A DNA stretch of 9,106 bases from a virus (lineage: Duplodnaviria > Heunggongvirae > Uroviricota > Caudoviricetes). The notes beneath the pieces were generated by a model, which saw nothing but the letters and a program-made list of their open reading frames with translations, was not told where the DNA came from and ran no database searches. Below, piece after piece: positions 1,331 to 3,267 of the stretch (positions within the stretch are counted from its first letter, which is position 1; every line of letters begins with the position of its first letter). Where the stretch lies: positions 1-9,106 of the IMG/VR virus record IMGVR_UViG_2703719349_000001. The stretch is one strand, 5' to 3'. The position numbers and the translations under genes were made by a program.

Positions 1331-2190
1331 TTGTTCTCCAAAATATTGATTCCTCAATTTCGGGACGTTACACTGTTCAGGCACCTTATAAAGCGGGTGC
1401 CGGGCGTGGAAACCCGGAATTCACCAAAGCGCACAACCGCGCTTTTGCGGTTTTTTTGTGTCATGAGCAGCATTACGCCCAAATTATGGTGGGGCGTGCA
1501 GGGCCAACTTCGGTTGGGCCGGGTTCTTTGGTGACCGGTATTTCCACCCCTGTACGTCTCACCACCAATAAGGTCGTGGAAAGCCTTGGTGGTGAGTTAT
1601 TAAAAATCACCAAAGAGGCTGCCATCATGGCTACGATCCCAACCCTCACTCAACCTGAAATTGCCATCGTTGATGGTCAGGCTGTTACTTCATCCCTGGC
1701 TGTTGCCAACTTCTTCTCCAAACGTCATGACGATGTACTGAAAAAGATCCGCATTTTGGATTGTTCTCCAGAGTTTTGTGCCCGCAATTTTGCGGAGACA
1801 TCAATTTTGGTACGCCAGCCCAACGGCGGTACTCGCAAACTTCCTTGCTATCAAATAACCCGCGACGGCTTTGCGTTTCTTGCTATGGGCTTCACTGGTA
1901 AACGTGCAGCCAGGTTCAAAGAGGCATACATCAACGCCTTTAACCTGATGGAGAAGAGTTTATCAGGTGCCGATGCGTCTGATATGTCAGCTGTCGCACG
2001 AAACGCCAGAGGCGTATACCTGCATTTGCGTGAAATCCATCAAATCTGGACAAGCCAGCTTTATCCAATGCTTAAGGCTGTTGAATCTCCGCTGGCCAGC
2101 AAACTGTACGACCGTGTTGGTGATGCTGTTTTTGGTGCTGCACTTGTTGATTCCAGGCTGAATGGTTCTGACAAGGAGGTGCGTCCATGA
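1327..2190 (+). CDS. rha: Rha-family phage regulatory protein with unrecognised ~100-aa N-terminal module; strong alternative internal start at 1627
   Basis: ORF open from ATG 1327 (ATGA overlap with upstream stop, weak SD). C-terminal ~185 aa match the Rha pattern (SLAVANFFSKRHDDVLKKI...EFCARNF...YQITRDGFAFLAMGFTGKRAARFKEAYINAFN). Internal in-frame ATG 1627 has a good SD (AAAGAGG 1612-1618). Which start is used is unresolved. Confidence 0.75.
   Translation: MIVLQNIDSSISGRYTVQAPYKAGAGRGNPEFTKAHNRAFAVFLCHEQHYAQIMVGRAGPTSVGPGSLVTGISTPVRLTTNKVVESLGGELLKITKEAAIMATIPTLTQPEIAIVDGQAVTSSLAVANFFSKRHDDVLKKIRILDCSPEFCARNFAETSILVRQPNGGTRKLPCYQITRDGFAFLAMGFTGKRAARFKEAYINAFNLMEKSLSGADASDMSAVARNARGVYLHLREIHQIWTSQLYPMLKAVESPLASKLYDRVGDAVFGAALVDSRLNGSDKEVRP
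1361..1404 (+). repeat. Ultra-conserved 44-nt block (copy 1) inside the N-terminal module of Rha paralog 1; contains GGCACC/GGTGCC hairpin
   Basis: CGGGACGTTACACTGTTCAGGCACCTTATAAAGCGGGTGCCGGG is 43/44 identical to 2221-2264, while flanking sequence is diverged. Confidence 0.85.
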
Positions 2191-2846
2191 TCCGCTTCCT
2201 GAATATTGATTCTGCCATTCCGGGACGTTACACTGTTCAGGCACCTTATAAAACGGGTGCCGGGATTGGCGTCCTAGAATTGCATACGGCGACAATTGGC
2301 GCGTTAGCGTCTTTTTTGTTGCTACAACTCAGCTATACCCAAATTATGGTGGGCTGGGTGGGGGCACCGAAAGGTGCGCCGGTTTCCGTATGCGCCGGTT
2401 ACGCCAACCCTGCTCAGTTCACCACCAGCGAAATTGGCGTTTCCGGTGGTGGAAGTTATCCATTGCATACGGAGGCTGCCATCATGGCTACAGACCCAAC
2501 TTCCCCATACCTGAAAATCGAAGTCGTCAACGGCAAGGCCGTTATTTTCTCCCTGCATGTTGCCTGCCATTTCAAGCGCATGCACCAGAACATCGTCGAC
2601 AAAATCGAGTATCTGAACTGCTCGCGCGAATTTTTTACCCGCAATTTCATACCGGGTACTTATCACATCTATGGTGACTCCCTGCGTGGTTATTACATCA
2701 CCCTTGATGGCCTGATGATGCTTCAGCTTGGGTTAAGTCTACGCACAATGCGGTACTACGAGAGCTGCATTGAAGCATTCCATGAGGCAGGGAACAGCCT
2801 GAATCTTACCGCTTTCCGCCGTAATCAGTGGGAGGCGCGTCCATGA
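2187..2846 (+). CDS. Divergent Rha-family paralog with the same N-terminal module; alternative internal start at 2484
   Basis: ATG 2187 preceded by AAGGAGG (2173-2179), ATGA overlap with upstream stop. C-terminal part keeps the Rha pattern (FSLHVACHFKRMHQNIVDKI...EFFTRNF...YITLDGLMML). Internal ATG 2484 has SD GGAGG (2471-2475). Ends ...WEARP. Confidence 0.7.
   Translation: MIRFLNIDSAIPGRYTVQAPYKTGAGIGVLELHTATIGALASFLLLQLSYTQIMVGWVGAPKGAPVSVCAGYANPAQFTTSEIGVSGGGSYPLHTEAAIMATDPTSPYLKIEVVNGKAVIFSLHVACHFKRMHQNIVDKIEYLNCSREFFTRNFIPGTYHIYGDSLRGYYITLDGLMMLQLGLSLRTMRYYESCIEAFHEAGNSLNLTAFRRNQWEARP
2221..2264 (+). repeat. Ultra-conserved 44-nt block (copy 2) inside the N-terminal module of Rha paralog 2
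   Basis: 43/44 identical to 1361-1404, at the same offset from the start codon (860-nt periodicity). Confidence 0.85.
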
Positions 2847-3037
2847 TTAGTTACGAAATTATTATTTCCACAACTGAATACAGAAACGATGTATCAGTTC
2901 GCACGGATGTATCTGTCTGGCACCGTCGCTATAAATCCAGAAAAACGGCAGAACTGAAAGCGGCAGAGATGTGTGAAACCATCTCAATGAAAGGTAGCCC
3001 GGTTAAATACGTAACTACGGCGGAGGTGCGTCCATGA
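2843..3037 (+). CDS. Small hypothetical protein (64 aa), AT-rich cassette
   Basis: ATG 2843 preceded by GGGAGG (2830-2835), ATGA overlap with upstream stop. Ends with the same -AEVRP tail and junction motif as the Rha genes. No recognisable domain. Confidence 0.5.
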   Translation: MISYEIIISTTEYRNDVSVRTDVSVWHRRYKSRKTAELKAAEMCETISMKGSPVKYVTTAEVRP

Positions 3038-3267
3038 TCCGCCACATCGTTAATTTCCTGTATCACCGATACAACCATTGCCCCCGTGTGGGGCAGTGGT
3101 TCACCACCAGCAACGGCCACGTTCTGCGGGTTTGCCTGGTCAATACAGAAAGCCAGAAGGTTGTCTGCCAGGTTCAGGGACGTACTCATACCCTGAGTTA
3201 TCCGCTGGTGGCGTTTCAGTCCGGAAAAATGTTTAAACGCCTAGGAGGTGGCTATGCGTCCGTCTGA
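3034..3267 (+). CDS. Small hypothetical protein (77 aa)
   Basis: ATG 3034 inside the exact 21-nt junction repeat (3022-3042), SD GGAGG 3022-3026. Several Cys/His (HCPRVGQW...CLVNTESQKVVC). No recognisable domain. Confidence 0.5.
   Translation: MIRHIVNFLYHRYNHCPRVGQWFTTSNGHVLRVCLVNTESQKVVCQVQGRTHTLSYPLVAFQSGKMFKRLGGGYASV

Follow-up and report, generated by a model that had tools for sequence, protein, structure and literature searches.

How can one short sequence close three consecutive genes that are otherwise unrelated, and at the same time open the genes that follow them? This question is raised by a 9,106-nucleotide (nt) stretch of DNA from a Caudoviricetes virus (IMG/VR record IMGVR_UViG_2703719349_000001, positions 1 to 9,106), called the window below. 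The short sequence, called J here, is located in an accessory slot between the immunity/Roi-BroN region and the replication gene O of a lambda-like Escherichia coli prophage. With a probability of roughly 0.7, J is a shared gene junction at which cassettes are exchanged and at which translation is handed over from one cassette to the next.

An exact 21-mer, GGAGGTGCGTCCATGATCCGC, was found twice in the window by motif search, at 2175-2195 and 3022-3042, and a variant copy, GGAGGCGCGTCCATGATT, which mismatches the 21-mer copies at 2 of 18 positions, is located at 2831-2848. These coordinates are the same as those given in an earlier note on this DNA, and neither the two 21-mer matches nor the three matches of the pattern GGAGGYGCGTCCATGAT (at 2175, 2831 and 3022) were reproduced in any of 200 dinucleotide-preserving shuffles. 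The earlier note had also described an E(V/A)RP tail, a Shine-Dalgarno (SD) sequence and an ATGA overlap at three consecutive gene boundaries, and the table of open reading frames (ORFs) bears this out. Three consecutive ORFs end in EVRP (2190), EARP (2846) and EVRP (3037), the TGA stop of each overlaps the following ATG (ATGA at 2187, 2843 and 3034), and GGAGG sits 7 nt 5' of each of these start codons. The consensus of J is GGAGG-N7-ATGA-T, 16-21 nt in length, and is composed of a strong extended SD, a 7-nt spacer and a stop/start overlap. The copies in the window, together with a diverged junction that is not a copy of J, are as follows; Rha1 and Rha2 are genes for Rha-family proteins, and the junction classes in brackets are defined in the next paragraph.

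2175-2195, + strand: J1, consisting of GGAGGTG (extended SD), spacer, ATGA overlap and TCCGC; links the 3' end of Rha1 to the leader ORF of cassette 2 (class A>Z).
2831-2848, + strand: J2, the variant GGAGGCGCGTCCATGATT; links the 3' end of Rha2 to the 64-amino-acid (aa) gene X (class B>X).
3022-3042, + strand: J3, identical to J1; links gene X to the 77-aa gene Y (class C>Y).
1315-1330, + strand: diverged junction GGCGGGTGCTACATGA, where the Bro-N gene meets the leader ORF of cassette 1 in an ATGA overlap; family D3, 66% to J1.

The junction from Y to O, GGAGGTGGCTATGCGTCCGTCTGA (3241-3267), resembles a J that carries a 6-nt insertion (GGAGGTG + GCTATG + CGTCC). The insertion makes the start codon of O, which begins with MRP at the place where J encodes the terminal RP of the upstream gene.

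Relatives of the slot were collected as about 270 prophage loci from a viral contig collection by three scans, which were anchored on the motif itself (91 loci), inside Y and inside the leader; the latter two are independent of the motif. In the Y-anchored sample, GGAGGnnnnnnnATGAT precedes every copy of Y. A fourth J-terminated upstream gene, D (about 76 aa, phrog_5146), which is not in the window, ends in LMADVQEV(H/R)P and lies upstream of Y in L096, L099, L101, L115, L127, L142 and L151. In the leader-anchored sample, most leaders occupy the first place in the slot, with other junctions ahead of them. J is thus not intrinsic to the leader, and appears only where a cassette follows a cassette. 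Junctions were classed by the upstream type (A, Rha1-type; B, Rha2-type; C, gene X; D, gene D) and by the downstream type (X; Y; Z, the isrK/C4 leader). The four upstream types are unrelated to each other, as are the three downstream types, and 9 of the 12 possible combinations were found, with the following counts.

Upstream A: A>X 54, A>Y 32, A>Z 4.
Upstream B: B>X 20, B>Y 28, B>Z 14.
Upstream C: C>Y 75, C>Z 1.
Upstream D: D>Y 11.

The sole sequence common to the 3' ends of the Rha1-type gene, the Rha2-type gene, X and D and to the 5' ends of X, Y and the isrK/C4 leader is GGAGGnnnnnnnATGAT. At least eight cassette orders occur (R1 and R2 stand for the Rha1-type and Rha2-type cassettes): R1-Y, R1-X-Y, R2-Y, R2-X-Y, R1-R2-X-Y (the window and L046), R2-R1-X-Y, R2-R1-Y and R2-X-R1-Y. 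Related sequence is present in 1,766 of 5,426 complete E. coli genomes, at up to four places per genome, so that partners for exchange are common; most of the two-cassette arrangement is present in 85 complete E. coli genomes. When one genome per species was scanned with a degenerate J pattern, 89 scattered matches in unrelated taxa were obtained, none of which (0/89) had cassette homology. This number is of the same order as the approximately 35 matches expected by our own arithmetic under uniform base composition. J as a general linker beyond the lineage was rejected because the scattered matches are at chance level and lack cassette homology; J is confined to one slot of one prophage lineage.

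The places at which relatives part from the window were also located. L007 matches the window at 1834-2195 (98.9% identity) and at 3022-3250 (97.4%), and the two high-scoring segment pairs (HSPs) overlap in L007 by exactly the 21-mer; L007 therefore corresponds to the window with a deletion of precisely the 847 bp between J1 and J3. In L015, which has the order R2-X-R1-Y, the same 21-mer forms the overlap at two joints, X>leader and Rha1>Y. Over all loci, HSP ends cluster at 2190-2199 (64), and HSP starts at 2840-2849 (35) and 3020-3029 (13). Comparison of the relatives thus shows whole cassettes gained, lost or placed in another order, the breakpoints lying inside J. Because everything downstream (Y, O and beyond) is homologous, one unequal crossover between non-allelic J copies of two prophages would suffice for each order. 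The earlier note had expected that different cassettes in related prophages would be flanked by the motif and that recombinant junctions would be found at it, and both expectations were borne out: every Y is preceded by GGAGGnnnnnnnATGAT, the 4 x 3 unrelated partner types are joined in at least eight orders, and the L007 deletion and the L015 permutation have their joints on the 21-mer. Its proposal that J could be a homologous-recombination boundary for cassette shuffling stands as far as the cassette boundary is concerned, on the 9 of 12 combinations and the L007 and L015 joints. The mechanism, recombination through the short homology of J rather than another process at J, is what we infer from the sequence comparisons.

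The Rha cassettes that J links have a leader in which two RNA genes were recognized. Rfam isrK matches are located at 1381-1457 (67.3 bits) and 2241-2317 (54.9 bits), with a gathering score of 50, and C4 (RF01695) matches at 1482-1569 (83.6 bits) and 2342-2429 (80.7 bits), with a gathering score of 45. Each isrK-like small RNA (sRNA) finishes with a hairpin of the terminator type that has a run of T residues behind it. The parts of the two leaders are as follows.

1327-1626, + strand: leader of cassette 1, with the isrK-like sRNA and its terminator at 1381-1457 and C4 at 1482-1569; a frame in phase with Rha1 is open throughout.
1346-1351 (TTGATT) and 1369-1374 (TACACT), separated by a 17-nt spacer, + strand: putative promoter of cassette 1, read by eye.
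1576-1582 (a2) and 1607-1616 (b2), + strand: C4 targets of cassette 1, with b2 next to the SD of Rha1.
2187-2483, + strand: leader of cassette 2, with the isrK-like sRNA at 2241-2317 and C4 at 2342-2429.
2206-2211 (TTGATT) and 2229-2234 (TACACT), separated by a 17-nt spacer, + strand: putative promoter of cassette 2, read by eye.
2434-2440 (a2) and 2465-2473 (b2), + strand: C4 targets of cassette 2, with b2 overlapping the SD GGAGG at 2471-2475.

The TTGATT/TACACT hexamers are read as a putative cassette promoter by analogy with the isrK promoter that was mapped in Gifsy-1 (PMC4825925). This reading is also based on the invariance of the hexamers between the two units, with the 17-nt spacer between them variable in sequence, and on their position, the putative -10 hexamer ending 7 nt ahead of position 1 of the Rfam isrK model. 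A strict sigma-70 scan left the cassette promoters unflagged, with 8 of 12 positions matched against a threshold of 9.

In unit 1, b' (1525-1534) is complementary to 1607-1616, which abuts the SD of the ATG at 1627, and to 1421-1429, and a' (1541-1547) is complementary to 1576-1582 and 1406-1412. In unit 2, b' (2385-2393) is complementary to 2465-2473, which overlaps the SD of the ATG at 2484, and to 2282-2289, and a' (2401-2407) is complementary to 2434-2440 and 2266-2272. Each C4 thus has exact loop complements of 7-10 nt at the upstream (a1b1) and downstream (a2b2, at the ribosome-binding site, RBS) sites of its own leader, and none in the other leader. Such cognate-only complements suggest that the window carries two tandem antirepressor cassettes of the P1/P4 type with different specificity, each predicted to consist of a promoter, IsrK (a1b1), C4, the a2b2/RBS region and a Rha-family putative antirepressor. 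The two leaders are paralogous (about 81% column identity), and Rha1 and Rha2 are strongly diverged. Relatives hold further RBS/loop variants of the cassettes. A second exchange point is seen at the leader/Rha boundary, where GAGGCTGCCATCATGGCTAC is conserved (1610-1630 and 2468-2487); relatives such as L001 and L061 pair a type-2 leader with a type-1 Rha, so that the specificity determinants and the effector genes reassort too.

The reading of J as an exchange junction with translational hand-over implies the following course of events. Unequal crossing-over or annealing between non-allelic J copies, within a genome or between co-resident prophages, would yield the observed rearrangements. 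The SD/ATGA anatomy of J would pass ribosomes from cassette to cassette through the early rightward operon as far as Y and O, so that every J-bounded cassette would be expressed while the downstream genes stay undisturbed. Where a Rha cassette comes next, the J start codon would open a never-interrupted frame that runs through promoter, sRNA, terminator and C4 RNA into Rha. The anatomy of J is canonical for translational coupling, so coupling at this site is plausible.

Selection alone could also produce a common junction. In a model of the Hendrix type, illegitimate exchange would occur anywhere, working SD-ATGA joints would be retained, and J would be only the favoured initiation and coupling sequence. 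The same operon contains many other ATGA, GTGA or TTGA overlaps with unrelated upstream sequence, which suits this model, and several further observations weigh against the reading of J given above. J is very short (16-21 nt), below the minimum homology of about 30 bp quoted for Red-beta (PMC3945230); phage recombinases are nevertheless described as tolerating short or diverged homology (PMC2327257, PMC3945230). Copies of J in one phage often differ at 2-3 spacer positions, and in the commonest architecture, in which A>X is GGAGGTTCGCCC and C>Y is GGAGGTGCGTCC, the uninterrupted identity is at most 7 nt. Further breakpoints lie off J, for example at 1340, 1610, 1830 and 2200, in conserved leader patches and inside Rha1, so J is not the sole exchange point. 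The locus counts are inflated by near-identical prophages, although the number of distinct combinations is not, and 91 of the loci were found through the motif search itself. As for translation, the predicted probability that the SD at J is paired was, across 78 distinct junction contexts, the same as in flank-shuffled controls. Local hairpins were seen in single folds, and just the J2 context folds better than shuffles (z = -2.67); SD occlusion as the basis of obligatory coupling is unsupported. When the spacer variants of J were tracked against the upstream or downstream partner for chimeric copies, no simple pattern was found. We nevertheless regard selection without exchange at J as unlikely. 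Coupling needs the SD and the overlap alone; that unrelated cassettes have the 7-nt spacer and first codons (ATGATCCGC) in common as well argues that the J copies share descent. Moreover, the joints of L007 and L015 overlap by the exact 21-mer between flanks that are 97-99% identical, and this is the signature of exchange within a repeat.

The other explanations fare worse. One recent tandem duplication, without wider meaning, would account for the paralogy of the two leaders and for the identity of J1 and J3; this objection, which the earlier note had raised against itself, falls because the units flanked by J (the Rha cassette, the 64-aa X and the approximately 76-aa D) are mutually unrelated. 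The strong divergence of Rha1 from Rha2 and the 9 of 12 combinations in which J borders cassettes across many prophages point the same way, and we give a single duplication next to no weight. It is also very improbable that J is the site of a dedicated site-specific recombinase or nuclease, as in an integron-like or homing cassette system. The cassettes are indeed precisely bounded by a short repeated site, which is partly palindromic (GGA...TCC); however, no recombinase or nuclease gene accompanies the slot in the window or in the annotated relatives, the SD and the start/stop overlap explain J fully, and the hairpin is no stronger than that of shuffled sequence in two of the three copies. 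Since J adjoins cassettes under antisense-RNA control, and since C4 usually targets an SD, such as J contains, J might act at the RNA level, as a C4/IsrK pairing site or a processing site common to the cassettes. No J copy, however, is exactly complementary to either C4 over 6 nt or more, against the 7-10 nt that each C4 shares with its own a and b targets; the duplex energies with J, calculated for the whole RNA and for the loops, are at the non-cognate background; and phages with other C4 specificities likewise have J in front of X and Y. A role of J as a C4/IsrK target was rejected on the complements and the energies, and an RNA-level function of J in general is hardly credible.

The frame that J opens in front of a Rha cassette requires a correction of the gene models. 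The earlier note had treated the ATG at 2187 as the beginning of a gene starting with MIR. This ATG opens the leader frame; like the ATG at 1327, however, it is not the N-terminus of a conserved protein, and codons 1-99 lie over the RNA leader. The Rha1 and Rha2 models of that note, which included about 300 nt of RNA-gene leader, have to be corrected, and the conserved Rha starts at the internal ATG at 1627 or 2484; the Pfam pRha domain starts only 3' of these codons. The leader frame, from the ATG of J1 (or the ATG at 1327), is in phase with Rha and runs across promoter, IsrK, terminator and C4. All 68 distinct leaders (from L001-L269) keep this frame open; they form 12 clusters at 90% identity and include pairs that are only about 57-60% identical, and the leader lengths differ by 3 nt only. 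The other two frames are interrupted by stops in 68 and 44 of the 68 leaders. Most of the more diverged leaders with other RBS types are likewise open into Rha. As controls, mononucleotide-shuffled leaders were open in 2.9% of cases, and column shuffles left a mean of 34 of 57 leaders open, with a maximum of 42, a test that is weakened by the kinship among the sequences. The variable columns of the leader frame are even over the codon positions (55/55/58), and the start of the frame nearly always overlaps the stop of the upstream gene, whichever gene this is (ATGA, GTGA or TTGA). Selection therefore seems to keep the passage of ribosomes through the leader and not the peptide.

A tentative extension of this idea, which we consider possible although not the likelier outcome, is a relay of ribosomes that finish one cassette, restart at J and translate the open leader frame through the promoter, IsrK, the terminator and C4 into the antirepressor. 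Ribosomes translating transcripts from the upstream operon would unfold the terminator and the target structures of C4. The product would be an antirepressor with an N-terminal extension, made beyond the reach of antisense control, and transcription would run on towards the replication genes. Transcripts from the cassette's own promoter would lack the J start codon, so the C4/IsrK control would apply to them. If this relay operates, the "Ash domain" would be a by-product of a selected translate-through function and not a protein domain. The Pfam Phage_ASH model (PF10554) matches both leaders, and PGAP names such ORFs "ash family protein". Ash has been called a domain of unknown function in Stx phages (PMC8951638), and PF10554 has been used as a marker of epsilon (PMC8628076). 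In phage P4 (L359), PF10554 matches an obsolete 137-aa "cI protein" ORF, at the part where this ORF overlies the C4-family CI RNA, whereas P4 epsilon, the true derepression protein, is PF25738, a separate family (- strand; old ORF 8168-8584, CI RNA 8420-8507, epsilon 7888-8175). The view of Ash as a genuine protein domain with homology to P4 epsilon was rejected on the absence of a codon pattern, the P4 match over the CI RNA and the separate family of epsilon. In these cassettes, "Ash" is the translation of RNA genes.

The genes of the slot and its neighbourhood in the window are as follows.

1-453: gene truncated by the window edge, of which the 3' part is present, with the frame open from base 1; antirepressor-like PHROG matches.
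506-1330, + strand: Bro-N domain antirepressor-like gene, 5' of the cassette array; Pfam Bro-N 7.8e-21 and PHROG anti-repressor families.
1627-2190, + strand: Rha1, a Rha-family putative antirepressor, from the internal ATG; Pfam Phage_pRha 6e-26, PHROG and third-codon-position excess; the C-terminus DKEVRP lies within J1.
2484-2846, + strand: Rha2, a short Rha-like protein of 120 aa, from the internal ATG; phrog_995 2.8e-54 and Pfam pRha 26.4 bits, below the cut-off of 29.9; the C-terminus QWEARP lies within J2.
2843-3037, + strand: X, a 64-aa gene that forms its own cassette between J2 and J3; phrog_7046 2.2e-48, third-position excess 6/8/25.
3034-3267, + strand: Y, a 77-aa gene; phrog_1153 2.4e-43; it overlaps the beginning of replication gene O in the window as well as in L001-L003, the annotated relatives examined.
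3254-4147, + strand: O-like replication initiator, the fixed right-hand neighbour of the slot; PHROG replication initiation families and the annotations of relatives.

The variable sites of X, Y and Rha are distributed about 1:1:3 over the codon positions (a third-position excess of about 3:1), which indicates that they are genuine coding sequences. The putative identity of Rha as an antirepressor or regulator is taken from PHROG and GenBank annotations. The relatives in GenBank are lambdoid phages, Stx-converting or phiP27-like, and carry the slot between cI/cro/Roi and O. Together with the gene at 1-453 and the Bro-N gene, Rha1 and Rha2 make four antirepressor-like genes in a row, 5' of the replication genes, and Y is followed by the O-like and then by DnaC-like and DnaB-like replication genes. 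Rha1 contains a mosaic patch in its winged-helix region (1754-1833), where L007 and L046 are 99% identical to the window on either side and unalignable inside. A 32-nt stretch at 1759 has 78% similarity to the leader start at 1329 and is spaced 430 nt from both 1329 and 2189. The O-like gene contains origin-like repeats (3582-3752), namely a 23-nt unit repeated 2.7 times (3631-3691) and a 12-nt unit repeated 3.7 times (3706-3749), and two near-perfect palindromes (3582-3614 and 3647-3687).

The origin of phage mosaicism has been debated for decades, with exchange at short conserved "linkers" on one side and random illegitimate joining with subsequent selection on the other (PMC3945230, PMC2327257). 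The slot is an unusually clean natural case for this debate, with one junction of 16-21 nt, 4 x 3 partner types and both a deletion and a permutation that have their joints exactly on the repeat, and its size is small enough for direct testing. There is also a consequence for annotation. "Rha/Ash" proteins have been reported in the regulatory regions of Stx phages (PMC8951638). Our analysis suggests that they are antirepressor cassettes under antisense-RNA control, present as one, two or more per phage with different specificities. Such cassettes would bear on prophage induction and hence on the release of Shiga toxin.

The slot can be compared with several known systems. Like integron cassettes (attC), the units of the slot are small, are bounded by a repeated site and vary in number and order within one operon slot. 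They differ in that there is no integrase and no attC-like imperfect inverted repeat; the repeat of J is a translation signal, and its exchange is most simply explained by general recombination. The leaders resemble P1/P7 immI (c4-icd-ant) and P4 seqA-CI-seqC, in which a C4-family RNA lies between two complementary targets, one upstream (a1b1/isrK/seqA) and one downstream (a2b2/seqC). The downstream one extends over the ribosome-binding region that precedes the antirepressor, and the loops carry the specificity. In the window, by contrast, two cassettes of different specificity stand in tandem in a lambdoid early operon, the regulated gene is of the Rha type, and the cassettes are chained by J. 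Gifsy-1 of Salmonella contains the same cassette family, with isrK, then a C4-like RNA overlapped by an ORF, and then the antirepressor, and translational coupling of orf45 and anrP through an AUGA overlap has been shown experimentally (PMC4825925). The equivalent of orf45 in the window is fused in frame to Rha, and a 287-aa ORF of S. dysenteriae is likewise such an orf45-antirepressor fusion (PMC4825925). Moreover, the AUGA overlaps of the window are between cassettes and not inside them, and coupling at J is suggested by its anatomy.

A close parallel is found within the lambdoid phages themselves. Short conserved flanking sequences were proposed earlier as recombination sites of lambdoid phages (Clark et al. 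2001, on HK620, as cited in PMC2327257), and conserved boundary sequences go back to the modular theory of Botstein 1980, as it is cited in PMC2327257 and PMC3945230. Like those linkers, J is a short sequence at gene boundaries, common to otherwise non-homologous modules, and different modules are joined at it in different phages. J differs from them in that it is itself the SD and the stop/start overlap of genes, in that up to three copies stand in tandem in a single slot, in that its units are very small (a 64-aa gene) or complete antisense-controlled cassettes, and in its restriction to one lineage and one slot. J behaves like a conserved boundary sequence of the lambdoid type and shows all three features of that family that were examined, namely a short sequence common to non-homologous modules, a position at module boundaries with different modules on either side in several phages, and recombinant joints within it. 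It may therefore be regarded as a clear example, restricted to one lineage, of the route through linkers by which phage mosaicism has long been proposed to arise.

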